Shown: positions 24,258-56,600 of the stretch, in pieces
Layout: each line of letters opens with the position of its first letter
Numbering within the stretch: position 1 is the first letter of the stretch
Virus record (IMG/VR): IMGVR_UViG_3300035670_012130
Location: 1 to 64,000 of that record
From: a virus
DNA: 64,000 bases
Strand: one strand, 5' to 3'
Program-made: the position numbers and the translations under genes
The notes under the pieces: generated by a model
What the model was told of the DNA's origin: nothing
The model's database searches: none
The model's input: only the letters and a program-made list of their open reading frames with translations

Positions 24258-24911
24258 ATGGCTATTCGTGCATTAAACACACTCGTAGTTGCAAACTACA
24301 ATACAGCTTCAGATGCTTCGTTTTTAGCTGGTGACGCACTTTATGTTAAGTCTGACGGTACTGTTGCTGCAGCTTACAGATCATTGAGTGCTTTCAATAC
24401 CCTTGCAAAGCAATTAGGTACATTTGTTGGATTTTCAGCTGATGATACTGCAAGAACTGGCAATACCATGATTCTTGCCGATCCAGTTGGATCTTCATAC
24501 ACTGATGCATCTGGTGTTCTTCAAACAAATAACAACGGCTTTTACGTTGTTTCAAAGAGAGCAATTGGTGATTTCTTAGCTGAAAACGTCAATGGTGTAA
24601 CAAACCCAACTGCAGGTTCTTCTGGATATGAAGGACCAAGAAGAGGTGTTGGAGTTTTCAATACCCCTGGTGGTCAATTTGTAACTGATAGATGGGTATC
24701 TACTGGTTCCACATCGGTCACTTTAGACGGTGCTTCTGGTTCCTGGACCCCTGCTGCAGGTGATCTTCTTACAGTTGCTGGAGCTTCTGGCAATGCAGGT
24801 AAGCTTACCAGATTGGGTACTGTTGGAACTGATGGTGTTATCGTCGGTAGAGTAGATTCTTATGATTCTGCTTCTGGTCTTATTTACTTCACACAACTTA
24901 GTGGAGTCTAA
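24258..24911 (+). CDS. Putative head decoration/minor capsid protein, copy B (paralog of 23412-24068)
   Basis: 217 aa; alignable end to end with copy A; AGGAG RBS. Confidence 0.6.
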   Translation: MAIRALNTLVVANYNTASDASFLAGDALYVKSDGTVAAAYRSLSAFNTLAKQLGTFVGFSADDTARTGNTMILADPVGSSYTDASGVLQTNNNGFYVVSKRAIGDFLAENVNGVTNPTAGSSGYEGPRRGVGVFNTPGGQFVTDRWVSTGSTSVTLDGASGSWTPAAGDLLTVAGASGNAGKLTRLGTVGTDGVIVGRVDSYDSASGLIYFTQLSGV

Positions 24912-38810: not shown

Positions 38811-39599
38811 ATGAATGTGATAGTAAATTACAATTGGGGTGATAAACATACATTTTCTTTGTCCCACAAACTATATCTTGAAGGCCTTGCAAAGATCAAT
38901 TGTTATAAACTTATTATAGTTTATGATATGAGTGAAGAGACGATTGATAAACTAAAGACTATTTACGACCATGTTGAAGTCATACCAAAACCAGATTCAC
39001 ATTTCACTTCATTTTACACAATTTACAAAACTGTAGAAAAATATTGCTCTCATTGTGATTTGTTTTTATATACTGATTCACATGATGTTATTTTTCAATC
39101 AGATCCTTTTGAATATCTTTCTAAATTTGATGAAGAAATTTTCTTAACTTCTCCAGGTTTTAAAGTAAAGGATCAATGGCCAGACCGAAATTGGCATGAA
39201 TATTTTAATAAATCAACTAGCAAAAAAGTAGATTTCTGGGAAGATAAAGTTTTGAATGGTGGAATAACTGCTGGAAAAGTTCAAGCAATACTCAATTTCT
39301 ATGCATTTGCAACTGCTAATTTAAACAGAAATGGTTGTCATATTGTAGATCAAACCGTATATTTATATTTTTATCATCTGATGAAAGACAGAGGTAATGT
39401 TAGAATTTTTGATACCAGAAATGATAATTTTGTGTATCACTGTCAAAATGAGCATTTTTTTGATCGCCCAGAAAATCCCAATGTTATAAACGGAAAAATA
39501 TACACTGAGTCTGGTGAGTTATATTGTATTTGGCATCAATGGGATGATATTGGATACTCGGCTAATTTAGATGAGAAAGGTAATGTTTACATTAAATGA
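38811..39599 (+). CDS. Putative GT-A-fold glycosyltransferase
   Basis: TDSHDVIFQSDPF, LNGGITAG, VDQ, WHQWD; located in the sugar island. Confidence 0.65.
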   Translation: MNVIVNYNWGDKHTFSLSHKLYLEGLAKINCYKLIIVYDMSEETIDKLKTIYDHVEVIPKPDSHFTSFYTIYKTVEKYCSHCDLFLYTDSHDVIFQSDPFEYLSKFDEEIFLTSPGFKVKDQWPDRNWHEYFNKSTSKKVDFWEDKVLNGGITAGKVQAILNFYAFATANLNRNGCHIVDQTVYLYFYHLMKDRGNVRIFDTRNDNFVYHCQNEHFFDRPENPNVINGKIYTESGELYCIWHQWDDIGYSANLDEKGNVYIK

Positions 39600-40309
39600 A
39601 TATAATATTTGCGGTTATAAGAAATCCAGAATTTGTGATAAATAATAAATATACCTCATTCATTAATTCACTTAAAAATTTGTCTGAGACATCTAAAATT
39701 GTTTTAATAAATGCAAGTTCAAAAGAAATTAAACTAGATCGTGCTAATATTGAAGTTTTGAATACTACTGCAATGGCTTCAGATTTAAACATTTATGGAG
39801 CAATTTCAGGATACTTGAATCAGTACCAAAATGACGAAAATGATTATGTTGCGATCTGTAACGTAGAAAATATATTGTTTACTCGTGATCCTTTATTGTT
39901 TCTAAAGCATTTTGATAAAGATCTATATTTTTATAGTTTGAGCCATATCAATAACGAAAGTACTCAAATAAAATCAGATTATGAGAATTTTGTAAAAACC
40001 TGTAATTTTTATATGGGAAATGATTTCGATTCTTTATCAATTGGTACTCATTTCTTTGGCGGTAAATTATCAGCTATGAAAGCATTGTTATTAACATTGT
40101 TTTTGAATGTCAACAGAAACTCAGCCAATACAATTACCTCTCAAGCTGTTTTGTCTTATGTTCACAAGCACTTTTATAATTTATTCAAAGTTCAAATGTT
40201 TACAAATCAATTTTGCATGCTTGTAGATGATAAAAGCAAGGCTGAGTCTATTTTAGACGATGAAGAATTATCTAAAAAACAATATGCAGTAATATACTTT
40301 ACCAGCTAA
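39596..40309 (+). CDS. Degenerate paralog of the GT-like proteins
   Basis: CNVENILFTRDPL aligns with xDxxDV.FQ.DPF; FFGG; SQ replaces DQ. Confidence 0.5.
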   Translation: MNIIFAVIRNPEFVINNKYTSFINSLKNLSETSKIVLINASSKEIKLDRANIEVLNTTAMASDLNIYGAISGYLNQYQNDENDYVAICNVENILFTRDPLLFLKHFDKDLYFYSLSHINNESTQIKSDYENFVKTCNFYMGNDFDSLSIGTHFFGGKLSAMKALLLTLFLNVNRNSANTITSQAVLSYVHKHFYNLFKVQMFTNQFCMLVDDKSKAESILDDEELSKKQYAVIYFTS

Positions 40310-40741: not shown

Positions 40742-41695
40742 ATGAAAATTGTATACATAACAGGTTGTTTAGGATTTATTGGAAGACATGTGGCTCTATC
40801 TTGTCTGGAAAAGGGGTGGTATGTATATGGAATTGACAAATGTACTTACGCATCTGACATTAATTTATTGAGTGAATTTAATAAATATAAAAATTTCAAC
40901 TTTCAGCAAATTGATATCTGTTCTTTAGATAGGTTGGTAGATTGTGATTATTTCATAAACGTAGCAGCAGAAACGCATGTAGATAATTCTATTAGAAAAA
41001 GTGATGATTTTATTCATTCAAATATTAATGGAGTTTACAATATATTAGAATTACTTAAAAACTACAAAAAAGAAGGCTATGTAACACCTACATTTTTACA
41101 TTTTAGCACTGATGAAGTTTATGGTGATATTACTGATGGAGCGCATATAGAAACTGATTTATTAAGGCCTTCTAATCCTTATTCAGCTACCAAAGCAGCA
41201 GCTGATCAACTCATCACTGCTTGGTCTAGAACTTATGATTTGCCATATGTTATTGTTAGACCCACTAATAATTATGGATGCGGTCAATATGTTGAAAAGC
41301 TAATTCCCAAAGCCTGTAAATTTTTATCATTAGGAAGGAAAATTCCATTACACAACAATGGAACACCAACCCGAAATTGGCTGCATGCTAAAGATACAGC
41401 TAAAGCAGTAATGACTATAGTTGAATCAGATGTAAAAAATGAAATTTATAATATTGCTGGTGGATTTGAACAATCTAACCTTGATACTGTTCACAAAATT
41501 ATCAAAGAGTTTTACCCAGGCAGTGTCTTTGAAACAGAAGATTACATAAATTTCAATGTTCATAGACCAGGACAAGATGTAAGATATGCTCTTGATGATT
41601 CGAAGATAAGAGCATTGGGTTGGAAGCCTGAATGTGTGTTTGATGAAGAAATTAAAGAAATAGTAAAATACTATAAAGAAAATTTTGTATGGTAA
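40742..41695 (+). CDS. rfbB: dTDP-glucose 4,6-dehydratase
   Basis: TGCLGFIG, DKCTYA, AAETHVDNSI, STDEVYG, PSNPYSATKAA, RPGQDVRYALD. Confidence 0.92.
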   Translation: MKIVYITGCLGFIGRHVALSCLEKGWYVYGIDKCTYASDINLLSEFNKYKNFNFQQIDICSLDRLVDCDYFINVAAETHVDNSIRKSDDFIHSNINGVYNILELLKNYKKEGYVTPTFLHFSTDEVYGDITDGAHIETDLLRPSNPYSATKAAADQLITAWSRTYDLPYVIVRPTNNYGCGQYVEKLIPKACKFLSLGRKIPLHNNGTPTRNWLHAKDTAKAVMTIVESDVKNEIYNIAGGFEQSNLDTVHKIIKEFYPGSVFETEDYINFNVHRPGQDVRYALDDSKIRALGWKPECVFDEEIKEIVKYYKENFVW

Positions 41696-41702
41696 TTATC
41701 AA

Positions 41703-42719
41703 ATGAAAGTAAATGATTACATTGCTGAAAGATTGTATCAAGAGGGTATTAGACACGTTTTTGGCATAATGGGTGGTGGAGCTGCTGGTATAAATGATGG
41801 TTTTATCAGAAGCAAAATTGAATACATTTGTTTTCATCATGAACAAGGTGCTTCGAATGCAGCTTTGGCTTATAGCAAGTCCAAAAATCAGATTTCAGTT
41901 GTTAACCCTACCACTGGATGCGGAGGATTAAATTGTGTAACTTCTCTAGTGTCAGCCTTTCAAGATAGTGTGCCTTTATTATTTATATCAGGTAATTATC
42001 GACTTCAAGAGACTACCAGATATCTTAATAAAACTAAAAACATAAGCTTGAGAAAATTTGGTTTACAAGAGCATGATATTATTGAACATGTCAAGTATGC
42101 TACAAAGTTTTTTGCATTTATAGAAGACAAGAACGATGTTCCAATGGTCCTTGAAAAAGCAATTCAAAAATGTGTTAATGACAGACCTGGACCTTGCTGG
42201 ATTGATATTCCTTCTGATATTCAAACCCAAGAAATCGATAATAGTTTTTTATTTCCAAATATTGAAACTGAAAAAAAAATTTTAAACAAAACTTATATTG
42301 AAGAATTTTTCAGTATTTTAAATAATAGCAAGAGACCATTGATTTTGTTAGGTTCAGGGATAAATATTTCTGATTGTAAACAAGAAGTAATTGATTTTAT
42401 TGAATTGAATCAAATTCCAACAGTCAGTACATTTTCTGCAAAAAATATTTTGCCTTTTGATCACAAATTAAGTATTGGCACTATTGGAATAAAAGGAAGT
42501 AGAGCTGGAAATTTTGCTTTACAAAATTGTGATCTGTTAATTGCTTTAGGTTGTTCATTAAATTCATCACATACGGGATATGATAAAAAACTATTCTCAC
42601 CAAAATCCAAAAAAATCTTGGTAAATATTGATGAGAATGATTATTTGAAAAATAATGTAGATTTTGATCTATTTATAAAAAAAGACTTAAAAGGCTTCTT
42701 AAATGACATCAAGAATTGA
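41703..42719 (+). CDS. ThDP-dependent ALS-like enzyme, N-terminal and middle domains (split gene, part 1)
   Basis: HHEQGASNAA, TTGCGGLN, RPGPCWIDIPSDIQ, GSRAGNFALQNCDLLI. Confidence 0.85.
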   Translation: MKVNDYIAERLYQEGIRHVFGIMGGGAAGINDGFIRSKIEYICFHHEQGASNAALAYSKSKNQISVVNPTTGCGGLNCVTSLVSAFQDSVPLLFISGNYRLQETTRYLNKTKNISLRKFGLQEHDIIEHVKYATKFFAFIEDKNDVPMVLEKAIQKCVNDRPGPCWIDIPSDIQTQEIDNSFLFPNIETEKKILNKTYIEEFFSILNNSKRPLILLGSGINISDCKQEVIDFIELNQIPTVSTFSAKNILPFDHKLSIGTIGIKGSRAGNFALQNCDLLIALGCSLNSSHTGYDKKLFSPKSKKILVNIDENDYLKNNVDFDLFIKKDLKGFLNDIKN

Positions 42720-43458
42720 CTGGATTGAAAAGTGTAATTATTGGAAAGAAAAATGGCCTTTGTATACAGATTGTTTCATTGATGACAATGATGGAATAAA
42801 TTTATATACAATAATTGAGACTATAAATAATTGCTCTAACACCAAAGACATTTTGATGACTGACGCTGGTTCTGCAAATTATGTTTGTTGCCAAAATTTA
42901 AAATTAAAAAAAGATCAAAAATTTATTTTTCCTGCAGCTCAAGGTGATATGGGATTTTGTATACCTGCTTGTGTTGGAGCCCAATTGGCAAATCCTGACC
43001 ATAATATAATTGCAATTATTGGAGATGGCAGTTTTCAAACAAATATTCAGGAACTTGCTTCTATAAAAGCAATAAAATCTAATTCTAAAATTGTAGTTTT
43101 GAACAATGAAGGCTATCTAAGTATTAGAAACACACAAAGTAAATTTTTTAATGGAAATGTCTATGGTGAATCTAAAAGTACAGGCTTATGGTTTCCTGAT
43201 CTTAAAAAAATTGCTACAGCATATGAATTCGAATATTTCAGAATCGAAAGTAATAAAGATTTAGTTGATATTTTTGAAAACGAACTTCACAGTGAAAAAC
43301 CAATTATTTTTGACATCAAATGCAAATATTCTCAAGATGTAATACCAACTTCAGCTTTAAAAATAGATAAAAATTCAGGTAAAAAAATTCAATGTGGCTT
43401 AGATGACATGTATCCTTTCATGAGCGATGAAGAGCATTCAAAAGAGATGTTATATTGA
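42703..43458 (+). CDS. ThDP-dependent ALS-like enzyme, C-terminal ThDP-binding domain (split gene, part 2)
   Basis: QGDMGFCIPACVGA, GDGSFQTNIQEL..NNEGYLSIRNTQ. Confidence 0.85.
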   Translation: MTSRIDWIEKCNYWKEKWPLYTDCFIDDNDGINLYTIIETINNCSNTKDILMTDAGSANYVCCQNLKLKKDQKFIFPAAQGDMGFCIPACVGAQLANPDHNIIAIIGDGSFQTNIQELASIKAIKSNSKIVVLNNEGYLSIRNTQSKFFNGNVYGESKSTGLWFPDLKKIATAYEFEYFRIESNKDLVDIFENELHSEKPIIFDIKCKYSQDVIPTSALKIDKNSGKKIQCGLDDMYPFMSDEEHSKEMLY

Positions 43459-44271: not shown

Positions 44272-44928
44272 ATGTCTAGATTTGATACAGATTTAATTTT
44301 CAAGATTGATGAAAAATGGTTTTGGCGTAAAGATGATTACAATTTGAAGACCTACAATGGCCTTTCAAGTGAGACAGATCTACTCAAAGTTGTTCAACCC
44401 TATCTCAAAGGTAAAAAAGTCGTAGTTCAAGCTGGTGGAAATTGTGGTATGCAAGTTGTTAAATTTGCAGAATTTTTTGATACAGTTTACACTTTTGAAC
44501 CTGATCCTATTAATTTTCATTGTTTAGTTAACAATTTGCCATATGATAATGTAATAAAATTCCAGTGTTGTCTGGGCGATTCTCATAAAATGGTTTCAAT
44601 GACTACTTTGCCCAATGAAATAGGTGGTTTTTATGTCAATGAAAATTTGGGTACAACTCCTACACTTAGAGTTGATGATTTGAATTTAACTTACTGTGAT
44701 TTTTTACAGCTTGATGTTGAGGGTTATCAACTTTATGCACTTAAAGGTGCTATAAACACAATCAAGAAATTCCATCCAGTTATTAGTGTTGAATTTGATT
44801 GGGCTTTTAGATATAATCACAGCACATCTGATATTAGAAATTTTTTAGCAAGCTTAGGCTACGAAAAAGTCGAGTCTTACACAACTGATCATATTTATAT
44901 TTATAAAAATCTTTCATTTAGTTTATGA
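44272..44928 (+). CDS. FkbM-family SAM-dependent methyltransferase
   Basis: VVQAGGNCG, YTFEPDP.NF, LQLDVEGYQ..ALKGA..TI...PVI. Confidence 0.88.
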   Translation: MSRFDTDLIFKIDEKWFWRKDDYNLKTYNGLSSETDLLKVVQPYLKGKKVVVQAGGNCGMQVVKFAEFFDTVYTFEPDPINFHCLVNNLPYDNVIKFQCCLGDSHKMVSMTTLPNEIGGFYVNENLGTTPTLRVDDLNLTYCDFLQLDVEGYQLYALKGAINTIKKFHPVISVEFDWAFRYNHSTSDIRNFLASLGYEKVESYTTDHIYIYKNLSFSL

Positions 44929-45821
44929 AAATATTAATTACAGGTGCTGGTGGTTTTTTAGGATCAAATATTTGCAATTTGCTATCTAAAAAGCATGAAA
45001 TTTTAGCTATATCTAGAAATTTTGAAAAACTAAATAGAGAAAGTAATATAATCTGTCATAAATTAGATATGGCAGATTATAATCTTTTAAAAGAACAAGT
45101 GCAAAATTTTATTCCAGAAGTAGTAATTCATTGCGCATGGATGGGCGGAAATTCTTCTAGAGACATTAATGAACTGTGGCAAGCAGATAACATCATTTAC
45201 AGCAATGAACTTCTTAAGTTTTGCTCATCTCTAGGGATTAGACATTTTATAGGATTTGGATCTTCTGCTGAGTATGGAAATCATTTATGCAAACTAAATG
45301 AACTCACAGTTTGTAAACCTACAACCATGTACGGTATTACTAAGAATTCATTTAGACACATAGCAGAGAATTATTGTGAATCTAATAATATCAATTTCAG
45401 TTGGGTAAGACCAGTTTTTACTTATGGTCCAAGAGATGTTGAGACAAGACTAATTCCTAAAGCTATTATATCTTTTTTGAAAAACCAAGATCTTGTATTG
45501 AATAAATGTTCAGCCGTAGTAGATTATTTATTTGTTGAAGATTTTTGTAAAGCCATACAATGCATTGTTGAACAAGAAATAATTGGAGATTTTACCATAT
45601 CTTCTGATGATGAAATTAATATAAAAAAATTAGTTGAAATGATTTATGAAAAAATTAATTCTAAATCTAATTTAATTTTTGATGAAAGTAAACCTGATTA
45701 CAGCCATCAATATGTTTGTGGTTCATCAGAAAAATTAAAATCTTTGTCTGATTGGCGCCCGCTGATTTCTTTAGAGAATGGTTTAGATAAAACCATTTCC
45801 TACTTTGAAAAGTTCGTATAA
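44925..45821 (+). CDS. NAD-dependent epimerase/dehydratase (reductase-like)
   Basis: ITGAGGFLG, GSSAEYG, YGITK, RPVFTYGP. Confidence 0.88.
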   Translation: MKILITGAGGFLGSNICNLLSKKHEILAISRNFEKLNRESNIICHKLDMADYNLLKEQVQNFIPEVVIHCAWMGGNSSRDINELWQADNIIYSNELLKFCSSLGIRHFIGFGSSAEYGNHLCKLNELTVCKPTTMYGITKNSFRHIAENYCESNNINFSWVRPVFTYGPRDVETRLIPKAIISFLKNQDLVLNKCSAVVDYLFVEDFCKAIQCIVEQEIIGDFTISSDDEINIKKLVEMIYEKINSKSNLIFDESKPDYSHQYVCGSSEKLKSLSDWRPLISLENGLDKTISYFEKFV

Positions 45822-45828
45822 TATTTTT

Positions 45829-46638
45829 ATGAATAATCTTTTGCTAAATTTTCTAGATGGTAATCGCATACTCGAATCAATTGATGCAGATATATACCTT
45901 GCATCATTATCAAAACACAAAACATTTAAAAAACTTGTATGTGTTTACAATGTTGATTCCGAGCAAATCAAAAAACTTGAGAAGTATTATGATTATGTAA
46001 TACCAGTTGAAAAAGGATTAACACCAATAAACTTTTGCTATTTAGCTTATTATAATTGGCTTTGTGAAAATGGCAAAGATTTCAAGTATGTAATGCATTG
46101 CGATATGCGTGATGTTGTAATTCAAAAAGATCCATTTGAATTTATGGAAAATCATCCAGATAAAGAACTATTTTTAGTTTGTGAAGGAATGAAAATTAAA
46201 GAGAATGATTGCAACAAAATGTGGCATGACTGGGTTTTAAATACAATAATTTACAATAAAGAAACCTACGATGATTCTTATGTTTTGAATGGAGGAACAT
46301 ATGGTGGGAAAACAAATGCTTTTCTAAATTACTGTACATTGATACTCACAGCAATGAATAGAAAGTTCCATTATATTATTCCAGATCAAGCTATGTTGGG
46401 TTATTTATATAGACAATTAAGTCAAAATCCAAATGTTATGCTAACTCATCCTATGACAGATACTTTTTGTGCAACTGGCGAGGCAATAAAAAGAGATAAC
46501 GTTGATGTTTATTTTGACGGTACAAATGTCTGCAATCAATTAGGGGAAAAGTATTGTTTATTCCATCAATGGGATAGAACTGAGGTGGCTGAACTGTTAA
46601 GAAATAAGTTTAAAAATACTTTGTCATTCAGCCTTTAA
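45829..46638 (+). CDS. Putative GT-A-fold glycosyltransferase (paralog of 38811)
   Basis: CDMRDVVIQKDPF, LNGGTYGG, PDQA, FHQWDR; ATG 45829 lies 6 nt after GTATAAT. Confidence 0.65.
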   Translation: MNNLLLNFLDGNRILESIDADIYLASLSKHKTFKKLVCVYNVDSEQIKKLEKYYDYVIPVEKGLTPINFCYLAYYNWLCENGKDFKYVMHCDMRDVVIQKDPFEFMENHPDKELFLVCEGMKIKENDCNKMWHDWVLNTIIYNKETYDDSYVLNGGTYGGKTNAFLNYCTLILTAMNRKFHYIIPDQAMLGYLYRQLSQNPNVMLTHPMTDTFCATGEAIKRDNVDVYFDGTNVCNQLGEKYCLFHQWDRTEVAELLRNKFKNTLSFSL

Positions 46639-47222
46639 CCTAATTCTCGTTCTATATCAATATCAAGATCTGCAGCTGTTTCAGGTTTAGCTTCATTTTT
46701 AGTAGCTAAAATAAGTTGAATAGTTTCAAACTCTTTCATACTCAAGTTAGAAAATTCATCTTTACTCATAGAAACTAAACCTCGTGTCATATAGTCTATT
46801 TCAACAACTAGTGGTGGCACGGGGTAAGTTTCTGTATCATTTGGGTTGTAATATTTTTTTGTCGCAACATAATAAAAGTTAGCTTCATCAGCATTCAAAT
46901 ATAGATAATTCTGATATTCAACCCACAACTTTTCTACAATCTGATAGTCTAGCTTTTCTAATAATGAGATTTCGAATTCAGGCATATAATCTATGTTAGT
47001 ACTTGTGTCATACGCTCTTAATATTGCTAAATTTAAAATCTCTCTTTTTTCAAATTCAGAATTTTGATAAACTATATTATCTTTTTTTCTAAATGATTTG
47101 GCATCTATCAACAAGCCTTCTTTCCAAGTTATTTCTCTAACTATAAACTTTACAGTATCTATCGTGATGATATGAGTTCTGTTTGATTTAATTTTATCGT
47201 AAAATTCAATAAATTCTTTCAT
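46635..47222 (-). CDS. Putative tail assembly chaperone-like protein
   Basis: 195 aa; IVREITWKE pattern; follows a tube-like gene. Confidence 0.4.
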   Translation of the reverse strand: MKEFIEFYDKIKSNRTHIITIDTVKFIVREITWKEGLLIDAKSFRKKDNIVYQNSEFEKREILNLAILRAYDTSTNIDYMPEFEISLLEKLDYQIVEKLWVEYQNYLYLNADEANFYYVATKKYYNPNDTETYPVPPLVVEIDYMTRGLVSMSKDEFSNLSMKEFETIQLILATKNEAKPETAADLDIDIERELG

Positions 47223-48463
47223 TATAAAAATTCTGATACTCTAGTATTTGATAAACCATTAAAAGCTGTAAATTCTGTCAATCTTGCAGTAAAATTATAT
47301 TCAATAAAATATCCAGAACCAGGACTAATTGTTATTGTAGGTTGTTGCCAATCTACATTTTTCATACTGTAGAAAAATACACTTCCAAAGTACAAGGTCA
47401 AAGCAGATGCATTTGTTTGAATAAATCCATAATTTTGAGGACTAAATAGTTTTAATGATCCAGTAACTCTTCTATTGCTTAATGATGCAAATCTTGGTCC
47501 AGCAATATCATAAAATTCGTACAAATTATTTCCAAATGAGTAACCAGGATAGGTGAACGTAAAGTCTATAGATTGTTGAATTGACAAAGACATGTTGACG
47601 ATTTTATGCACTGGCATACTATTTGAATTGTAGGAATTTTGAACAGCTTTGGCAAAATCTTTAAAAGCATTATTTCCTGTAAATAAGCCTGGATAAAAGG
47701 CGCAATCAGAAAGATTTATTGCTCTATACTTGTCTTGAAAATTATTTGATTCATCAGTATTTAGTTGATTATCCAATTCGTTTATTGTCTTCATTTTTAT
47801 ATAATTGTTATTTAAAAATGGTCTATAAACAGTAATATTATCTGGAGATATGACAGATCTACCTCCGACTAACGAGCATGAAATTTCTACATCACCAAGT
47901 TGATTTAAGCCATCTACGCTTATTTGAAAATTACTTACAAAAGCAGGCCCAAAAGATTTGTGTGTTGGAATACTTGAGCAAAAAAGTAACGGATAAAGCG
48001 GTATATAAGAAGCTCTATACATTATAATTTCTGCAGAATATTGTTGATTTACATTAGTAGATAATATTGGGTTAAAAGAAAAGTTTCCTGAATATTGATA
48101 ATTTGTAAATGTTGGATGATTTAATGCAGCTAGACCTGAAAAATTTTGAATTGGTTGATATACATTGTCGCCAGCATTATCAGTGAAATTAGAACAATAT
48201 AATGGTTTATATTCGTTAGAAAATCTTTTAGTAAAATAAAACCCTTGTGAAGCTCGATTTGACATATTTGCGCTTAGCAAATATAAATCCCATAAATGAG
48301 ATCTTGAACCAGTGGTGTTTTTGGCAACTCTGTATCCACCAAATGATTTTAACTGTTGAGTATATAAACCTGTCGATGAAAAAGGAGCCAGTTCGCAAAC
48401 ATATATATTATGTCCTGATGCTGGGTAAACTCCATTTATGACATTGTTTATAATATCTGGCAT
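47222..48463 (-). CDS. Putative tail tube-like structural protein 2
   Basis: 413 aa, beta-rich; NMSLSIQQSI..NRRVTGSLKL..IEYNFTA parallels the 48850 gene. Confidence 0.45.
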   Translation of the reverse strand: MPDIINNVINGVYPASGHNIYVCELAPFSSTGLYTQQLKSFGGYRVAKNTTGSRSHLWDLYLLSANMSNRASQGFYFTKRFSNEYKPLYCSNFTDNAGDNVYQPIQNFSGLAALNHPTFTNYQYSGNFSFNPILSTNVNQQYSAEIIMYRASYIPLYPLLFCSSIPTHKSFGPAFVSNFQISVDGLNQLGDVEISCSLVGGRSVISPDNITVYRPFLNNNYIKMKTINELDNQLNTDESNNFQDKYRAINLSDCAFYPGLFTGNNAFKDFAKAVQNSYNSNSMPVHKIVNMSLSIQQSIDFTFTYPGYSFGNNLYEFYDIAGPRFASLSNRRVTGSLKLFSPQNYGFIQTNASALTLYFGSVFFYSMKNVDWQQPTITISPGSGYFIEYNFTARLTEFTAFNGLSNTRVSEFL

Positions 48464-48850
48464 TTATTTTCCGCCTGTCATTTCCAACCATTTTTTTGAT
48501 AAGGCTTTCACTAATTCGTATCTAATCATATTTACATTATGGGGATCTGGATAATAAGTTTCTACATTTTCCCCTTCTATAATCTTAATTACAGAAAAGA
48601 AATTTGTAATGATGTTTTTGCAAAGCACTGATGTTCGCAATAAAGGATTACCAGTTACAGAATTGATAATTGTAGCTTCTTCTATAATATTCGACATATC
48701 GGAAAAGTTTCTTCCTTTGACATCACAAGAAATCAAACATTTTCCGTTCGGATCAATCTTATAACAAAGTATTTCACCATCTTCGTTTTTAATGATGTTA
48801 CAATTTAATTTTAATTCAAATCTTTTTCCAGCGTCTACAAAAATACTCAT
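48464..48850 (-). CDS. Small protein, possible tail chaperone
   Basis: 128 aa between two tube-like genes. Confidence 0.4.
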   Translation of the reverse strand: MSIFVDAGKRFELKLNCNIIKNEDGEILCYKIDPNGKCLISCDVKGRNFSDMSNIIEEATIINSVTGNPLLRTSVLCKNIITNFFSVIKIIEGENVETYYPDPHNVNMIRYELVKALSKKWLEMTGGK

Positions 48851-50322
48851 TAATAAATTCCTGTTGATTTCAATACTGGGTCAAATGTATAATTCTGAGT
48901 AGCAACTGAAAAATTTACTTTATTTTTTTGGTATTCCATTCTAGAGTGTTCTTGAGAATCAGTTGACCATACAACTTCAGGTAGTTCTAACTTTATTGGC
49001 CCCATATCAAAAGTTATACCGTCATTATTGATGCTACTTGGTCCAGACAGAAATTCAACCATCGCCCAAGGTTTAATAGGACCTGTGTATGTAAGTGACC
49101 CTGATATTTTACGTCCTTCTGAATAGTACCCATATGGTAAAGAATTTTTAAAGAAGTTTTGTTTTGAATCACTACTTTTTGAATTTAATGTAAAAATAGG
49201 TTTCAAATTATTTTCTATACTTATATCCATCTCAGTGACATATATACTATCTAATTTTGATTGTTGAAATCCTCTGAATAACTTTGAGTCAATCATGGTT
49301 CCAAGACCAAACAACCCGTATTCTGGAGCACTTTTATAAACTCTTGTATTGAAACCATTTAATATATAACTTGGTTTTTTCTTAAAATAACTTTCAACGA
49401 TTGAAGTAAAATTATTATATAGTTGAACTTGATATGTTCGGTCAACATTCAAAACTTTCAAGTCAATGTAAGCTATTATTTGTTCTCCAGGCTTAAAATT
49501 AATAGCAAACTTATCAACAAGACAACCACTTAATAATCCTTGTTTCAATGTAAATAACGAAAATGATGCTTCTCTGCCAGTAGATTGAGGATAAGCTGAA
49601 ATATATGATGTATCTCTATTAAAAGAAGTATTTATTCCAGCCCCTATGGTAAGTAATCTATTTGTTTTATCAATACCAGTTATTTCGATTAAGTCATAAT
49701 ATGAATTATTGTCAGATTTAATTTTTGCTTCAAATGGTAAATCTAAACCCATAAATTCAGCTATATTATCAATATACAACTGCGTTGATCCAACTCCTAT
49801 AACTGAGGAGTTGTCTGTAGTAAATCTTCCTATAAATGAAGTTGGTGAACCCTTGAATGCTTGAATACAATAATCAAAAAAAGCAGCAAGAGAAAAATCT
49901 AAATATCCCCAACTATCTACTTTAAAAGGATAGGTAAAACTTACATTATATTCTTTGGGGCCTAATTGAAATGTATTAGGGTTTGCTCCTTCACCAGCAT
50001 ATCTCTGACCAGCATCTGCTTCTTGCGCTCCACGTATATTAAAGTTGTCAATTGAAAAAAGATAATTTGAATTTATATTACTGAAAGATAAATTAAAATC
50101 TGGATCTTCAGAATACTCTCTGGACAAAACAAACAAATCATAATAACCTGTTTCAAAAGCTGGAGCGTATAATTGCGAACTAAAGTTATTGTATGCTTCT
50201 TTATATAAATACTGGTTCGGAACAGATTCTGAGCTTCCAATACTAGAGGCTAATATTGTTTGATCAACAGCAAAAGAATTAACATTTGATTTTATTGAAC
50301 TTGCACGAATACTTTTTCTCAT
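48850..50322 (-). CDS. Putative tail tube-like structural protein 1
   Basis: GCLVDKFAINFKPGE, EMDISIENNL..GRKISGSLTY..KVNFSVA; likely ATG at 50322. Confidence 0.5.
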   Translation of the reverse strand: MRKSIRASSIKSNVNSFAVDQTILASSIGSSESVPNQYLYKEAYNNFSSQLYAPAFETGYYDLFVLSREYSEDPDFNLSFSNINSNYLFSIDNFNIRGAQEADAGQRYAGEGANPNTFQLGPKEYNVSFTYPFKVDSWGYLDFSLAAFFDYCIQAFKGSPTSFIGRFTTDNSSVIGVGSTQLYIDNIAEFMGLDLPFEAKIKSDNNSYYDLIEITGIDKTNRLLTIGAGINTSFNRDTSYISAYPQSTGREASFSLFTLKQGLLSGCLVDKFAINFKPGEQIIAYIDLKVLNVDRTYQVQLYNNFTSIVESYFKKKPSYILNGFNTRVYKSAPEYGLFGLGTMIDSKLFRGFQQSKLDSIYVTEMDISIENNLKPIFTLNSKSSDSKQNFFKNSLPYGYYSEGRKISGSLTYTGPIKPWAMVEFLSGPSSINNDGITFDMGPIKLELPEVVWSTDSQEHSRMEYQKNKVNFSVATQNYTFDPVLKSTGIY

Positions 50323-50329
50323 ATAAAAC

Positions 50330-52780
50330 CTATGGCGTAGTTTCAATAGTTATAAGATCATAAATATCCCATAAAATTGGACCGTTATTAATTCTTGTTA
50401 AGTTTGTACCTGGAGTGACATAAGCATCAATGACTCTATCAAATAACTGTAAATCATTTCCTAAGGCGAATCTTTGATTTCTAGAAGTTCCTTTTGGCAC
50501 TGTAGTCGTTAATGTTGTAGGTTCTCCATTTTCACCATTTTGTGCGATTACAGTTACTACCAAATCATTCTTTATAGTTTGATCGTCAGTTGTGGCAATT
50601 CCAGTGGTTGATCCGTTAAAAACTACATTAGAAGTAGATAAATCTTCAACATAAGGGACATATGCTGAAATTCTACTAGGCTGTAAAGCTATTCTGTTGG
50701 TTAACTTTATTCCACGTCTTAATATTTCGCCTGATATATTGCCATCATCAAGATAACCTCTAAATTTATAAAAAGCGGTTCCACCTGTTCCAGTCCAAGA
50801 TGTTCCATTATTGATGGATGTTAATCCTTGACCAGAACTGCCTGAAATTATTCTGGTATATAAACTTGTGGACCCAAGACCTGTAGTGAAATCTGATGGC
50901 TTGTCTATTACTAGCCAGTAGGATGAACCTTGTTCTAAGTTAGCTCCTGTTCTAAATTTTATAGTATATTCGTTAGTGCCTTGTTGTATATCAGAATTTC
51001 TTATAACTGATGCGCTAGTGAGCATTCCATTAGGAGTTGGTGTTGAGCCTGTTGCTGAAAATATTGATATAGATATGCCTGTTGTACCTGAGCCTGTTGT
51101 TTGACCTCCAGCAGTATACTTAAATTTAAGTGTTACTCCTCCGATGAAACAATCTTCATTAGGTGTAATTTTAAAAGCTGTAAGTCCATTATTTAATATC
51201 AAATCAGTATCATCTGTAACTGTTGTCATCGTGTTGTAAGATGGATATTGTATTTCGTTTATATTAGTTAATTTTCTTTCAATTATATCACTACTTAGTT
51301 GCGGTTTTTTGTAAACATTATAAAAAAGTGGATTTGTAATTCCTGCGCCAGTCCAAGTTAACTCTACAAGATAATTGTTTGATGTAAAATTAGATGATAC
51401 TAAATTACTGTAAACTGGTATACTTTCTACATACTCATCTGTAGATATATTGTAAACTATTGTCACTCCATAAATTTGAGTGCCCGATGAAAGCGAAGAT
51501 ATATAGTTAGAACAAGGTATGACTTGATTCGTTAATCCTGTGGCAGCTACTGAATTATCACTTCCTATAGCTGCATTGTAAGTTATCAAGTCTCCTCTAA
51601 AAATTGCAAATGTATGTTGAGTATCAGAACCTATTGTTTGATAGTAAGCTTTTGCGAAATTATATGGTAGCTCAAATCTTTCAAGTCCACTAAATGATGT
51701 GCCTTTAGAATAAAATTCAGTTTTTCTGAAAGGTTGTGTTGCTAAAAGCTCTCTATTTGTCAATCCTGAATTTGAAGATTCCGTGCTCAAGTATCTGTAA
51801 ACTGCAGAAACAGTATTTCTTATGTAATCATTTGATTTATATGTTGATAATGCGTCATTTGCTTCATTACAACTTTGAATTATCAAGCTTTTATCAGAAG
51901 AATCTCCTAGTATTTGATACGTTGATATATCAGTTGGCATATCTACAATCGTTCTGGTCAATCCCGTACCAGAATCTACTACTACTGGGTCTTCAGGGTT
52001 TTTAACCATTACTTTACTGATTGGCAACCAGCTTTGTGGTAATGGAGGAAAATAATCAAATGTATTGACATTTTCTGAACTTTCTAAAACTGGAAAACCA
52101 GTTATATATTTTACTCTTGGTTGAAAAAGAAATGTTACTGGATTGTCTAGATAGTATGTAGCTGGTAATGTTCCAAAAGAAGATCCATTGTAATATGATG
52201 GATCTACCACTAAACCTGTGAGATCATCAGTAACATTTGAAAAAGTAATTAAGTAATTTCCTACAAAAGCTTGTAGAGGAAATCCAAGATTTACAGCAAT
52301 TGATGCATCTTTTACTAGCAATATTGAAGTTCCAGCTAAGCAAGTGTCGCTAACTGTAGTTGCCCAAGTTTGAGTAGCTTTTTGTGCTTCTGAAATAGGC
52401 AATCCTAAAGTAACGCCATATTTATAACTTGCTCCAAAGCCTCCAGTAGAATAGTTTTTTGACCATTCTTTCCTTAGGGGTATTTTTTGTGGCTGTAAAC
52501 TAATTACTGATCCATTGTAAGCTAATTGTCCACTTCTTACAGTTACATAATAAGGGTCATATGTTATATCATAAGTTGTTTCGCAGCCTAATGGAGCTGT
52601 TTCTAAGATTCCAAAATATGGCAATCCTGTATTAGCCATAGATAGCAAGTTATTAATTTCAAAAATAGAAGAGCCAGGAGTTTCCACGTCTCCAATGCCA
52701 TAACTTAAAGCATCGTAAATATTGCCCACTGTTTTTGTTAATTCAAGAACTATTTCTTCTACTTTTGATGAAATTGCCAT
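50330..52780 (-). CDS. Virion structural protein (tail/baseplate) with a beta-sandwich domain
   Basis: 816 aa, Thr/Ser/Gly-rich; AFKITPNE...YWLVI domain shared with 53636. Confidence 0.55.
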   Translation of the reverse strand: MAISSKVEEIVLELTKTVGNIYDALSYGIGDVETPGSSIFEINNLLSMANTGLPYFGILETAPLGCETTYDITYDPYYVTVRSGQLAYNGSVISLQPQKIPLRKEWSKNYSTGGFGASYKYGVTLGLPISEAQKATQTWATTVSDTCLAGTSILLVKDASIAVNLGFPLQAFVGNYLITFSNVTDDLTGLVVDPSYYNGSSFGTLPATYYLDNPVTFLFQPRVKYITGFPVLESSENVNTFDYFPPLPQSWLPISKVMVKNPEDPVVVDSGTGLTRTIVDMPTDISTYQILGDSSDKSLIIQSCNEANDALSTYKSNDYIRNTVSAVYRYLSTESSNSGLTNRELLATQPFRKTEFYSKGTSFSGLERFELPYNFAKAYYQTIGSDTQHTFAIFRGDLITYNAAIGSDNSVAATGLTNQVIPCSNYISSLSSGTQIYGVTIVYNISTDEYVESIPVYSNLVSSNFTSNNYLVELTWTGAGITNPLFYNVYKKPQLSSDIIERKLTNINEIQYPSYNTMTTVTDDTDLILNNGLTAFKITPNEDCFIGGVTLKFKYTAGGQTTGSGTTGISISIFSATGSTPTPNGMLTSASVIRNSDIQQGTNEYTIKFRTGANLEQGSSYWLVIDKPSDFTTGLGSTSLYTRIISGSSGQGLTSINNGTSWTGTGGTAFYKFRGYLDDGNISGEILRRGIKLTNRIALQPSRISAYVPYVEDLSTSNVVFNGSTTGIATTDDQTIKNDLVVTVIAQNGENGEPTTLTTTVPKGTSRNQRFALGNDLQLFDRVIDAYVTPGTNLTRINNGPILWDIYDLITIETTP

Positions 52781-52781
52781 T

Positions 52782-53636
52782 TTATATATTTATACTCAAC
52801 TCTGTTGTTAGATAAGATAAAAGTCTGGTTGGTAATAAAATGCCCGTGCTTTGCCAATATGATGTAAAATCAGGCTCCCAAGTTGAACTACCAACCCAAT
52901 TTGAAATAATATCTTTGGTTAAATTTTTCTGTGTATTATATTGTTCTGAAATTAATGCATAATTTCTTATGATTGATGAAACTACTATTCTTGAAATATT
53001 CTCTTCTGTGTAGCCAAAATAACCTCTTGGCAATCTTTCGTCTATCAATTTGAAAAACACTCTTGAGTTTTTAATTGTCTGATCATAGTAAGAAACATCT
53101 GCAATAAATTTATATAATTCTAAATCATAAGTTTTATCTGTTGTGAAAGATAATTCTTGTGAAGTTCTAATAATTTCCTCAGCAGTATCGATATCTATGT
53201 CCTTACTGATAATCAAAGGGCTGCCATTTGGGTCATTTATGGGTCTAGCTAATGAAAAGATTAGTTCTTCTCCATCAACACTGTCCGAGGATAAAAATAC
53301 TTTTCCAAATATGTATCCATCAGACATTGTGTCAATATTTCCCAATACTTCTTGGACTGTATATCCTTGTTCATTTCCGGTGGGAAGCTCAACATTAGTA
53401 GTTGATAAAACTGTTTTAACTAATCCTTTCCCAAAACTCAAAACATCAAGAACCATATTGTAATTTTGAGATTTTATTGCTGATAGTCCGTAAAGCAATT
53501 GCAAATTACGTTCTACAGTATTATATGACAAAGCATATTCTTGTGAAGCTAATGCCATATCAACTGTTTTTTCTGTTTGATCAAGAGCAAGCACTAAATT
53601 ATTCATTGTGACTGCTGACGCATAATTCATTGCCAT
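52782..53636 (-). CDS. Hypothetical tail-module protein
   Basis: 284 aa ORF translationally coupled within the minus-strand operon. Confidence 0.6.
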   Translation of the reverse strand: MAMNYASAVTMNNLVLALDQTEKTVDMALASQEYALSYNTVERNLQLLYGLSAIKSQNYNMVLDVLSFGKGLVKTVLSTTNVELPTGNEQGYTVQEVLGNIDTMSDGYIFGKVFLSSDSVDGEELIFSLARPINDPNGSPLIISKDIDIDTAEEIIRTSQELSFTTDKTYDLELYKFIADVSYYDQTIKNSRVFFKLIDERLPRGYFGYTEENISRIVVSSIIRNYALISEQYNTQKNLTKDIISNWVGSSTWEPDFTSYWQSTGILLPTRLLSYLTTELSINI

Positions 53637-56600
53637 TATTTGTTCCTAATCACAATCTTGTCAGTAATGGGGAAACCATAATATTGATCATTGATTTCTT
53701 CCAGAGATTTACCAACAACTAAGTATGTTATATTTTCAATTTTTTCACTATCAATAAGTATTGGGCTTACTGATACATCTTGATAGAAAGAATTATCAAC
53801 TTCTTGCCATGATGACGTACCAGTCTTTCTCCATTCTAATTTCAAATTGTGTAAATTTTGATAATTGTTAAATTGTAATTCTAATGTTATTGGCTGTGAA
53901 CTTCCTGTAGCAACGTAAGATGTTGTGAATGAAGTAGAAGAAGTATTATTCCAATCGCTTATGTATGGATTATCTTCATTATTTATATAAAATTTTACAC
54001 CACCATTTGTAGTCACTCTAAAGTCAAAAGTTGCGCCTAATGAGGAAAGGGCTGTAAAATCTCCGACTGAATACCCATTGAAATAATTTGTCTGTCCTAA
54101 TCCGCCAAAATTATCGAAATCAAGATTATGATGAGCTGATGTTAAATCACTCATTTCATTGCTGTCTAATTCGAGATAATTCCAGGAAGATTTCTTATAC
54201 CATTGAGTAATCCAAGTGGGCGATTTATCAAGCTTTATATAAGTAGTTTGAAGCTGATTGTCAACATTATATTTAAGATACAAGTGGATATCATTTGCTC
54301 TCTTGATAAATCTATTAGTGTTATCACCAAAGTAATGAGTATTAGCTGAACCTGACAAATTATTACTTAGATAAACTTTATATAAGCCATTTGTTGAATC
54401 ATATGTCAAATTAGTTATGGCTGTACCGCTTGATAAAACGCTTGAAGTAACTGCTATACCAACCATAACAGAAGGGTCAAAGTTTTCTTCTGGTATATAA
54501 AGTAAATTTGTTCCAGAAGTTCCAGTAGCTCCAACTGCAACCACTCTAGATACAAATGATCTAGGATAAATATAGAGTTGAGATGGAGTAAATAAATTTT
54601 GATTATTTACTGTCCAAAATTCATCTAAATAGTAATCAGTATCGTTTGATCTGGTTTTATTAGGTGCTGGCATAATAAGAGAAGAATAATTAAAATCTCT
54701 ATTGAATCCAGCATAAATTTCACTATCTAACCCGAAGAATTCTACAAATGGTGTGCCTGTAGAAGCAGTCCAAGAATATCCATCGTAAAAAGCCATATTG
54801 GATGCAGTTGGAGTGGAGGACTCTTGTATCTGCAATCTTAGGTCATATTTGATTACATAACTTTGATTATCACTTGTTCCAGCGCTTCCAGATAATGTCA
54901 TCACGGAAGAAGAACCTATAGAAGCAATCTCATACCAAGTAGAAATATCACCAGATAAAGTACTACCAAATCCTATAGAAGCATACTTTTGATATTTATT
55001 GAAATCAGCCATTGTATCTGTAGATGGATTGTAAAGTCCACTTACTGCTGTTCCACTTACACTAACTAATCCAAGTGTTTTAGCATCATAATTAGGTGGA
55101 TTTGTATTTGATTCAAACACAATCCAGTATGTTCTGTCTTTTGTAAGTGAATAGTTCACATAAAAATAAACATCATCTAGAACGTTCTTTATAGTTGTAT
55201 AGAAAACTTTAGAACCAGTAATGAGCTTTGCATTTGGAAGGCTATTGTAATTGTCCCAAATACTTATTTGAATATAAGCATCAGGATTATTGCAAATAGC
55301 TAAACTTTGTAATCTAATTTTTAAAGATTTTATATCTTGATATTCGTTTGGTGTAATTTTAAAAGCAAATTTATTGTAATTTAAACTCTTATAATTACCC
55401 TTAGTAGTTTGGTTTATATTTGTAGCATCAACTATTGATATTTGTTGTTTGTAGATGTTTTCAAGACTATTGATTGAAGAGTCTGAAGTTGAATATCCGG
55501 CAATTGAAACAACGAAAGAATCAGACCTTAAATCTAAAATATTTTGCGCTGTGAAAATTTTGTTATCTTTTTCAGCTCCAACTACTTCATCGTAATTAGA
55601 AATCCAATGTTTACTTCTGCTGTATGCATAATTAGAAACAGTCATACCCATTTCTTTGATAGTGGAGAATGTGTTTGGAAATTGACTAGAATCTGGAGTA
55701 TAGAAAGATTTAGTTAATTCATAATCACTAACACTGTCTTGAATTTCCGCTTCTGTGATATTAGGATTTGTTGATTTTAAGTTAGTTATAAAGTCTGATT
55801 TAGTTTGTTTTGTAGAATCTGTAGGCTGAACTTGCTTTGTTAATATTGCTCTGCTTTCGCCCATTTGCATATTAGGAATGATTGCAGCACTTCCATAAAG
55901 TCTGTATTCTTCCATTGAGTTGAAAGTACCAGGCGCATAATTATCTCTTTCTGTTTGTGTACCTTGCTTAAAATATCCAGAAGTTGTTAAATTTTTGTTT
56001 TGTCTGTTCAAATATTCGTCATCTGTAATTAAGAATTTTGAAGAATTTAACTTTATATTTTTAATTAATTTATCACTATTAGCATTTTGAAACACAATTG
56101 AAAAAGCATAATCTTTTGTCAATTTTGTTCCTGTTGTTTCTTGATCTAATAAATCTGGAATGTTTGACACTTCTTGGTAAAACTCAAATTCTGTATCACT
56201 TTCAAAATTGATGTCATTAAGTTTCATTCCATTTTCATCATATTTAAAAACGATTTTTGTTGGAGGAGTTGATAGCCAAGAAATCATTGCATTTGCGCCA
56301 GATTCTTCAACTTCAATATTGATAGGTTCAGTTTCTAATGGACTATTTTTAATACCATATGTTTGACTATCTACTGCAGCTTTATAATTTTCCTCAAGAG
56401 TCAAATAAGTATCTGTAATGATTGAAAGCACTTGACCATATAAAATTGTGCCATCAGAGCTATAAAGATAATCGCCCTCAGTTATTTCTTTTGTGAACTT
56501 AGAAGAACTACCAATTACAACATTATTACCTGAAGATATAGTAATTTTTCCAGAACCTTTTGTTGTTTGATAATTAGATTTTAATGCTGGAGCTATTGGA

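Follow-up and report, generated by a model that had tools for sequence, protein, structure and literature searches.

Introduction

Little is understood of how the separate enzymes in a viral glycosylation pathway locate one another and their acceptor, and the known cases of coupling involve either fusion or large interaction domains. In the E. coli O9a O-antigen system, WbdD, which puts the methyl group on the terminal sugar, brings in the glycosyltransferase WbdA via a non-catalytic C-terminal region and thereby couples transfer to capping (PMC3482155). In the chlorovirus PBCV-1, the protein A064R carries two glycosyltransferase domains and a methyltransferase domain in one chain, and the methyltransferase acts on the terminal sugar that the adjacent transferase domain has just added (PMC9614988). 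A C-terminus may also serve the enzyme that carries it: the loop Thr358–Val368 of bovine alpha-1,3-galactosyltransferase (alpha3GalT) is required for catalysis and takes on an ordered form when the donor binds (PMC13476921), and BoGT6a has a C-terminal lid (residues 228–236), a basic-hydrophobic-basic region being found at the C-terminus of bacterial GT6 enzymes (PMC3516806).

The window analysed here, a stretch of 64,000 nucleotides of viral DNA, encodes a methyltransferase (FkbM) and a glycosyltransferase-like protein (GT3) that end in the same short peptide, referred to below as the tail. We propose that the two are coupled through these tails, much as WbdD recruits WbdA through its own C-terminal region; WbdD, however, is bacterial and not viral, has a long coiled-coil and a membrane-binding region, and shares no common peptide with its partner. 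With A064R the locus has in common a viral glycan pathway and the logic of the FkbM–GT17 and methyltransferase–GT3-like fusions described below, but the coupling in A064R is covalent, whereas FkbM and GT3 are separate proteins with a common tail. Clamp client tails follow QL[SD]LF or QLxLxL in bacteria, and in phage T4 gp43, gp33 and gp55 bind gp45 through C-terminal tails. The arrangement proposed here would resemble that of the clamp clients, with one short hydrophobic C-terminal peptide on unrelated proteins and one docking hub, but FkbM and GT3 belong to a sugar pathway and not to DNA metabolism.

Results

Two enzymes of unrelated fold share a C-terminal peptide

The tailed genes and the gene between them are arranged as follows.

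44272–44928, + strand: FkbM-family SAM methyltransferase, 218 aa (PF05050 and structure match)
44905–44925, + strand: codons of the FkbM tail, K-N-L-S-F-S-L; the stop codon (44926–44928) overlaps the ATG of the next gene
44925–45821, + strand: NAD-dependent epimerase/dehydratase (SDR) between both tailed genes (PF01370, E 2.2e-38); C-terminus ...YFEKFV, tail absent
45805–46638, + strand: GT3, GT-A-fold glycosyltransferase-like protein, last gene of the + strand sugar operon (fold matches, AF2)
46612–46635, + strand: codons of the GT3 tail, K-N-T-L-S-F-S-L; the stop codon (46636–46638) overlaps the stop of the convergent gene

A first-pass annotation of this DNA had reported the same LSFSL end on both enzymes, and direct reading of the two ORFs bears this out. 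FkbM ends in KNLSFSL followed by TGA (44926–44928); the range given earlier, 44905–44928, comprises this peptide and the stop but begins one codon short of the Y quoted with it, which lies at 44902–44904. The range for GT3 was correct, KNTLSFSL extending from K at 46612–46614 to TAA at 46636–46638. The codons of the shared pentapeptide differ, again as annotated (ctt tca ttt agt tta in FkbM, ttg tca ttc agc ctt in GT3), and vary synonymously across orthologues, which rules out a DNA repeat as the origin of the shared tail. Coding overlap was ruled out as its cause, since GT3 and the convergent gene overlap at their stop codons only.

The annotation had also taken the two folds to be unrelated, and the fold matches agree: FkbM is a class-I SAM methyltransferase and GT3 a GT-A glycosyltransferase. 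FkbM matched PF05050 (Methyltransf_21) over residues 71–198 with an E-value of 4.5e-13 and 50.1 bits (cut-off 22.7). Its AF2 model (pLDDT 93.1) had 2py6 (FkbM) as best PDB match, with Z 14.2 and an rmsd of 2.4 over 158 residues at 22% identity (model residues 33–210). The true start of GT3 is probably the ATG at 45829, giving a product of 269 aa, because the homologues are 269 aa long and M9 is nearly invariant. The AF2 model of GT3 (pLDDT 91.7) matched the LH3 GT domain (Z 16.1) and bovine alpha3GalT (Z 16.0) with about 218 residues aligned, and further GTA/GTB and BoGT6a; a Foldseek search also supported the GT-A fold (E 1e-8). In Pfam, no GT family scored above threshold and there was only a weak match to DUF7780 (E 0.009); the identity to GT6 structures was 10–15%, and by sequence GT3 does not belong to CAZy GT6 or a curated GT family. 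D100 and D103 (D-M-R-D) and E226 were invariant in 52 sequences and are candidates for the DXD motif and the catalytic Glu, respectively.

The tail is a conserved add-on

Of the 106 cluster representatives of GT3, 98 end in the motif [LM]-x-F-x-[LI]-COOH, and 100/106 have F at position −2. The motif also ends 41/56 close FkbM representatives, so that the tail is kept among orthologues, a check that the first-pass annotation had suggested. Among distant FkbM representatives it was found in only 1 of 60, where the match is a core strand. The consensus is [NS]-[TK]-L-[SR]-F-[SV]-[IL] for GT3 and [KQ]-x-L-S-F-[SN]-L for FkbM, and the hydrophobic positions are retained over many synonymous codon changes in both families. 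The GT3 clade ends 20–21 residues past HQWD, the wider GT family mostly 13–14; the tailed FkbM clade ends 9 residues past the D-x-I-[FY] strand, distant FkbMs mostly 3–5. Judged by these sequence ends, the tail has been added on in GT3 as in FkbM, since wider relatives of each stop 5–7 residues sooner. In some close FkbMs F is replaced by S or G and in others the tail is lost altogether; one sub-clade beside GT3 has F replaced by S (L236, ending LTSVL), and the constraint is therefore weaker on the methyltransferase side.

In the AF2 models both tails are coil with a mean pLDDT of 67, in contrast to cores that score above 91. That of FkbM lies beyond the last strand (206–211), the fold ending at about residue 210–213, and that of GT3 (residues 271–277) follows a helix (262–271). 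The alternating L-x-F-x-L pattern suits an amphipathic strand, as far as sequence can tell. These properties are those of a short linear motif (SLiM): the site is flexible and outside the fold, the key positions are conserved while neighbours and codons vary, and the same motif occurs on unrelated proteins of one process, in two families only. Overall, two unrelated enzymes carry a C-terminal add-on that is flexible and conserved at the level of the protein.

A flexible C-terminus could also act in cis, as a mobile lid or substrate contact, with an extended GT6-type lid in GT3 and an FkbM tail that contacts the same unusual sugar; the likeness of the tails would then reflect a shared ligand and not a shared protein partner. 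GT3 residues about 256–259 (the HQWD motif) align with alpha3GalT 357–360, at the start of the Thr358–Val368 loop, and the C-terminus of BoGT6a behaves like this loop (PMC3516806). The C-terminal segment of GT3 thus sits at the position of the GT6 mobile lid, and a cis role is therefore possible. GT3 and the GT6 lid enzymes (alpha3GalT, GTA/GTB, BoGT6a) have in common the fold (Z 16), a flexible C-terminus after a Trp-containing motif and basic residues ahead of it, here the conserved R266 and K268; both tails are flexible in the ligand-free models, and each GT paralogue has its own conserved C-terminus (see below). Unlike the GT6 lid, however, LSFSL is a further hydrophobic extension, six extra residues past the helix where most of the GT family ends, and it occurs on a methyltransferase too, which would not be expected of a lid as such. 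Beyond its last antiparallel strand, the chain of a class-I methyltransferase leaves the sheet on the face that points away from the SAM-binding site, and the 7-residue FkbM tail would for this reason be poorly placed as a lid. Moreover, an identical linear peptide is not expected to arise in two unrelated active sites for one small ligand. We consider a cis role unlikely.

The tail is not a general feature of the pathway

Two paralogues of GT3 are encoded upstream, and the convergent gene downstream.

38811–39599, + strand: GT1, paralogue of GT3 without tail, ending ...GNVYIK (BLASTP E 7e-31, 30% identity over 256 aa)
39596–40309, + strand: GT2, remoter paralogue of GT3 without tail, ending ...KKQYAVIYFTS (BLASTP E 5e-8)
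46635–47222, − strand: last gene of the convergent tail module, 195 aa, adjoining GT3 in 12/14 loci

Each GT paralogue retains a conserved C-terminus of its own, which in GT1 orthologues is G-x-V-Y-I-K. None of the precursor-synthesis enzymes ends in the tail, as the first-pass annotation had noted. Its proposal of a tag for acceptor-modifying enzymes held in so far as two unrelated enzymes carry the peptide, but GT1 and GT2 do not. A general tag was ruled out on these grounds, with GT3 and FkbM the only carriers as families.

The same distribution bears on a placement of both enzymes at the inner membrane, near lipid-linked glycan acceptors, by a basic-then-hydrophobic patch. The GT3 tail is directly preceded by R-N-K-F-K, and bacterial GT6 enzymes have a C-terminal membrane-association region (PMC3516806). 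The tail, however, contains three hydrophobic residues only, its alternating pattern looks like a strand and not like an amphipathic helix, FkbM has a single lysine ahead of it, and it is missing from GT1 and GT2, which belong to the same pathway. A role in membrane placement is quite improbable.

A survey of C-termini, which the first-pass annotation had recommended, took in all those of the 106-kb contig, of three related genomes (169, 316 and 358 kb) and of about 190 related loci (33+80+80). Ends of the type [LMF]xFx[LIV] occurred on 2/76 ORFs of the contig, FkbM and GT3 only; among these 76 ORFs about 0.003 pairs with an identical C-terminal pentapeptide are expected by chance. No family other than GT3 and FkbM had the tail as a family feature in the related loci (33+80+80) or in the sugar clusters of the three genomes. 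Other C-terminal 4- or 5-mers in common within the three genomes were limited to neighbouring ORFs of similar length, which are probably paralogues.

A few isolated single ORFs in the scan matched the tail as well. One genome (G002) encodes a protein of ~320 aa outside the sugar cluster that ends in FQFDFSI; its counterparts end in EIDFSL (G003) and FQFDFQLL (G000).

Candidate receptors were sought in five related genomes, where no PDZ domain was found and TPR matches were sub-threshold only, on the pair of 218-aa proteins (23412–24911 in the window) whose genes precede that of the capsid protein (24946–25800). To our knowledge the tails bear no resemblance to encapsulin-type cargo peptides or peroxisomal SKL-type signals, and neither a shell nor a receptor of these kinds was seen. 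In 12/14 loci of diverse origin GT3 is the last + strand gene and converges on the tail module (here 46635–58339). The adjoining 195-aa protein is a candidate partner of the tail, on grounds of position only. This protein had no PHROG or Pfam match, the tail-assembly-chaperone-like leads being weak (score 0.84–0.86); the neighbouring tail-module genes had no match in PHROGs, and BLASTN of the region against the phage collection gave none.

Comparison with sliding-clamp motifs

The hydrophobic spacing of the tail (x-L-x-hydrophobic-x-L) resembles the hexapeptide clamp motif, like QLxLxL, and a bacterial-type beta clamp is encoded in the window (804–1961), so that both enzymes might be tethered to the clamp and glycosylate and methylate DNA. 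The DnaE proteins of G002 and G003 end, however, in LLSDELFD and the sigma-70-type factor, whose gene lies near the clamp gene, in ...DFLFD; these tails are acidic and different, and the clamp-type tail of this phage group appears to be acidic-LFD, on DnaE and the sigma factor. No replication protein ends in LxFxL in two relatives that are 88–89% complete. Instead of Gln at position 1 of the motif, GT3 has N or T and FkbM has N, E or S; the genes of both enzymes lie within the virion module, and the GT-A enzymes that GT3 resembles are directed to glycans and proteins. Given the acidic-LFD ends of DnaE and the sigma factor and the lack of Gln, a clamp motif was rejected as the main reading, and we regard it as a very remote prospect.

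The FkbM tail tracks GT3

GT3 was nearby for 8/8 distinct F-tailed FkbMs with readable context versus 1/97 other FkbMs, a count behind which stand 2–3 independent contrasts only. Three phylogenetically independent contrasts were obtained, two in the same direction and one a tie (sign test p 0.5). In three loci (L240, L243 and L246) the capsid protein is 97–99% identical, the sugar cassettes are other ones, FkbM lacks the F tail and there is no GT3. In the tree of the FkbM core the F tail occurs in two separated, well-supported clades, and joining only the tailed rows was rejected in an AU test (p 0.001, 56 rows). The tail-less clade of close FkbMs (P0032, P0039, P0042–P0045, P0048, P0053) was absent from IMG/VR and prokaryote genomes; it was represented by one metagenome contig (L224), which ends 61 bases past the gene. 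The GT3 tail is retained in genomes without FkbM, and FkbM is therefore not the receptor of the GT3 tail.

These observations also weigh on a coincidental match of two short terminal strands, a copied 3' end or a shared history without function, including a tail kept for folding or stability or as a C-terminal degron. Consistent with such an origin, the tag occurs in two families only, FkbM can have S or G in place of F or do without the tail, and the independent contrasts are few. Against it stand the very low chance expectation for identical ends, the retention of the hydrophobic positions over many synonymous changes in both families, the position of the tail outside the folded cores, and the way in which, among near-identical phages with swapped cassettes, the tail state of FkbM goes with the presence of GT3. 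An origin of this kind has a small chance of being correct.

Methyltransferases and glycosyltransferases are fused in relatives

An exhaustive search yielded methyltransferase–glycosyltransferase and TPR–glycosyltransferase fusions among distant relatives; a word search for fused long forms of GT3 gave none. In the FkbM–GT17 fusion proteins (L302, L278) the junction lies 5–15 residues past the FkbM core, where the FkbM tail sits. The fusions of a class-I methyltransferase to a GT3-like protein (P0241, P0245, P0275, P0323, P0348) lack the tail. The fusions show that methyltransferases and glycosyltransferases of this kind work physically coupled.

Discussion

Our proposal, to which we give about an even chance, is that the tail serves as a short docking peptide and links the methyltransferase either to the terminal transferase or to the acceptor that the two enzymes share. 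It draws on the sequence conservation of the tail, its status as an add-on, its flexibility in the models, the co-occurrence with GT3 and the fusions, and from these we infer binding, the identity of a receptor and the order of the reactions. The first-pass annotation had suggested a C-terminal beta-strand docking peptide; the conserved, flexible and amphipathic add-on, the association of the FkbM tail with GT3 and the fusions favour docking, but not the general tag for acceptor enzymes that was part of that suggestion.

The tail would be a flexible, amphipathic, strand-type linear motif of 6–7 residues whose carboxyl end is free, and it would have been added at the C-termini of two unrelated enzymes that serve a single phage glycan pathway. 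Within a sugar cassette that varies greatly, GT3 is the last transferase and is conserved, with the tail in the phages of this group that have GT3 (strict motif 98/106); FkbM, where its context is readable, has the F tail only when the gene adjoins GT3. The FkbM tail would bring the methyltransferase to a surface that is also bound by the GT3 tail; candidates are GT3 itself (self- or hetero-association), an acceptor common to both enzymes or some other protein of the phage. O-methylation of the sugar could then follow at once on its placement by GT3, and the shared tail would be the non-covalent counterpart of the covalent methyltransferase–glycosyltransferase fusions in relatives. In a narrower version, which we put forward tentatively and hold to be rather doubtful, the tail would be an address tag that docks the terminal glycosyltransferase, and thereby the capping methyltransferase, on the glycan acceptor, which would be a structural protein of the phage.

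Should the tail act in cis, it would be an ordinary enzyme feature. As a docking peptide, the tail would allow tailoring steps to be coupled by a minimal, portable element of six residues that both a transferase and a methyltransferase have acquired, and it offers an experimental handle towards the acceptor or hub of an uncharacterised phage sugar system. The sugar cassette is swapped between near-identical phages in the group of this large lake phage. If the address-tag reading is true, the swappable cassettes would plug into one conserved docking site, and the tail would be the first described peptide-tag recruitment system for viral glycan-tailoring enzymes.

Genomic setting of the FkbM and GT3 genes

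The 106-kb IMG/VR virus contig, whose initial 64 kb form the window, has a G+C content of 33%; the related phages are large (169–358 kb) and come chiefly from environmental metagenomes of JGI and ENA. A nucleotide-sugar cluster of ∼20 kb separates the major capsid gene from a convergent tail module. It encodes SDR enzymes (a 4,6-dehydratase type and others), a 3,5-epimerase, two DegT-type aminotransferase-fold enzymes, thiamine-diphosphate enzymes, HpcH-type aldolases and a sugar kinase. The FkbM methyltransferase and the glycosyltransferase-like protein GT3 are encoded toward the cluster's end.

Genes referred to in the sugar-cluster region
24946-25800, major capsid gene (PHROG major head protein, E 3.6e-68)
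44272-44928, FkbM methyltransferase, toward the cluster end
44925-45821, SDR between FkbM and GT3, toward the cluster end
45805-46638, GT3, GT-like protein, toward the cluster end; start probably ATG 45829

GT3 was in every case the final gene of the plus-strand sugar operon, and in 12 of 14 diverse loci it directly adjoined the tail module, with variable sugar genes upstream. One thiamine-diphosphate enzyme occupies two overlapping ORFs (41685-42719, +, N and M domains; 42703-43458, +, C domain); the same split occurs in two relatives (L240 and L242), and it therefore appears to be a genuine two-gene form. Immediately upstream of the capsid gene are two paralogous proteins of 217–218 residues (23412-24068, + and 24258-24911, +), which have a C-terminal ...YFTQLS... 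in common and whose N-termini match TPR_16 below threshold (E 0.005, ∼14 bits); as a weak lead, they are candidates for a decoration or peptide-binding protein.

The shared tail and its conservation

The first-pass annotation had reported an identical C-terminal tail on FkbM and GT3, and reading the sequence confirmed it: the last residues of both are L-S-F-S-L, with K-N before them in FkbM and K-N-T in GT3, and the codons differ. The two proteins have unrelated folds, FkbM that of a class-I SAM methyltransferase (PF05050; PDB 2py6, Z 14.2) and GT3 that of a GT-A glycosyltransferase; the structures nearest to GT3 are the glycosyltransferase domain of LH3 (Z 16.1) and the GT6 enzymes bovine alpha-1,3-galactosyltransferase (Z 16.0), GTA/GTB and BoGT6a. 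Endings of the form [LMF]xFx[LIV] were found in 2 of the 76 ORFs of the contig, FkbM and GT3 only, and the chance expectation is ∼0.003 identical C-terminal pentapeptide pairs in 76 ORFs. Other common ends of 4 or 5 residues in three related genomes belong to neighbouring ORFs of similar length, which are probably paralogues. Coincidence, like membrane association or a degron, is a minor option.

The tail is kept in orthologs, the check that the first-pass annotation had named. Among 106 near-full-length GT3 cluster representatives (down to ∼41% identity), the ending [LMF]-x-F-x-[LIV] occurs in 98 and F at position −2 in 100; the motif is present in 41 of the 56 FkbM representatives with 52% identity or more, and in 1 of 60 more distant ones, there through a core strand only. 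Synonymous sites of the tail codons vary freely in both families, so selection acts on the peptide and not on DNA or RNA. In each family the tail is an added element. Most of the wider GT family (2047 representatives; exhaustive profile search, E up to 0.001) has 13–14 residues after the conserved HQWD motif, versus 20–21 in the GT3 clade, and most distant FkbMs have 3–5 residues past the last D-x-I-[FY] strand, versus 9 in the tailed clade. The AlphaFold2 cores are confident (pLDDT 91.7 for GT3 and 93.1 for FkbM); the last 7–8 residues are modelled as coil (mean pLDDT 67), starting after helix 262-271 in GT3 and strand 206-211 in FkbM.

The C-terminal segment of GT3 starts at the position of the donor-induced lid of alpha-1,3-galactosyltransferase, Thr358-Val368 (PMC13476921), and BoGT6a has a comparable C-terminal lid (PMC3516806). 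A role in cis, in which the GT3 tail would extend the lid and the FkbM tail would touch the same sugar, is nonetheless rather unlikely, as the extension is absent from most of the GT family. In the class-I fold, moreover, the FkbM chain presumably ends on the face opposite the SAM site, which also counts against such a role.

Distribution of the tail

The cluster contains two paralogues of GT3, at 38811-39599 (30% identity) and at 39596-40309 (25%), and the C-terminus of each is conserved in a form of its own, different from the tail. Among the 585 ORFs of 33 loci surrounding GT3 homologues, the strict motif occurred in GT3 and FkbM only, and in three whole related genomes in GT3 and, in G002 only, one protein of ∼320 residues.

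The ∼320-residue protein and its counterparts
G002 337966-338928, outside the sugar cluster, ends FQFDFSI
G003 182875-183822, counterpart, ends EIDFSL
G000 88621-89586, counterpart outside the window, ends FQFDFQLL

This protein sits among giant proteins; the alternating aromatic strand at its end is probably of the ordinary terminal kind. The C-terminus scan thus upheld the tail on FkbM and GT3 but not as general to the cluster's GTs: the tail-less paralogues and the near-exclusive occurrence in GT3 and FkbM among relatives rule out a general tag. Five large relatives carry a tailed GT3 without FkbM, so the GT3 tail is independent of FkbM.

A bacterial-type beta clamp is encoded in the window, and docking of the LSFSL tail to it was considered; this is very improbable, because the DnaE of relatives and a sigma-70-type protein near the clamp gene carry a different common tail.

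Clamp-related genes
804-1961, +, bacterial-type beta sliding clamp
2972-3538, +, sigma-70 region-4 protein, 188 aa, ends ...DFLFD, ∼1 kb downstream of the clamp gene
G002 93580-96846, −, DnaE-type polymerase, ends ...LLSDELFD
G003 90459-93713, +, DnaE-type polymerase, ends ...LLSDELFD

By analogy, the polymerase-like tail on the sigma factor suggests clamp-coupled transcription, similar to that of T4 gp55/gp33-gp45, although the phage here uses bacterial-type parts.

Association of the FkbM tail with GT3

For the 105 distinct FkbM homologues whose context could be read, GT3 was nearby in 8 of 8 F-tailed FkbMs versus 1 of 97 without the F tail (Fisher p 3e-11); the sole exception, L236, has the tail LTSVL. 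The sugar cassette is exchanged among phages with 97–99% identical capsid proteins: in L243, FkbM ends LQGNI, with a different terminal 270-aa protein and no GT3, and L240 and L246 have a tail-less FkbM and no GT3 in the 10 kb read per side. On an FkbM tree from which the tail columns were left out, the F-tailed proteins fall in two separated, well-supported clades, and the AU test rejects grouping the tailed rows alone (p 0.001); a single gain may have been followed by several losses. The raw association overstates the evidence, because there are only three phylogenetically independent contrasts, two in the same direction and one a tie.

Compared with L240, L243, L246 and L236, the window has at 25877-46638 a quite different sugar cassette between capsid gene and tail module, and the adjoining tail-module proteins are only 37–68% identical. 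In these comparisons, the region has the character of a hypervariable glycan-plus-tail-tip island.

Natural fusions and a model for the tail

FkbM relatives (50–52% identity) are fused C-terminally to a GT17 domain; a linker of only 5–15 residues follows the FkbM core, so that the glycosyltransferase begins at the site of the tail in the window's FkbM.

FkbM-GT17 fusions on metagenome contigs
L302:9881-11473, +
L278:1-1389, +

Five distant GT3-family members (P0241, P0245, P0275, P0323, P0348) have an N-terminal class-I methyltransferase; these fusions are without the tail. Since natural fusions occur, physical coupling of a methyltransferase to a GT3-kind transferase is a recurring solution. 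Two further distant members (P0333, P0360) are TPR-GT fusions, a hint that this uncurated GT-A family may have proteins as substrates or partners.

The tail is most economically read as a docking peptide whose hydrophobic residues alternate and whose carboxyl end is free. The first-pass annotation had proposed docking of acceptor-modifying enzymes to a shared scaffold or the assembling virion; a general tag of such enzymes fell away, and the conserved, flexible add-on and an FkbM tail that tracks GT3 speak for docking. With roughly even chances, we infer that the methyltransferase tail would dock on the surface bound by the tail of GT3, the candidates being GT3 itself, a common acceptor or another conserved phage protein, and would thereby couple sugar transfer with O-methylation. 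PBCV-1 A064R likewise couples transfer and methylation, there covalently (PMC9614988), and WbdD similarly recruits a partner, WbdA, through its C-terminal region (PMC3482155). Short docking tails common to the enzymes of one process are an already known kind, of which the FkbM/GT3 pair would be a new variant.
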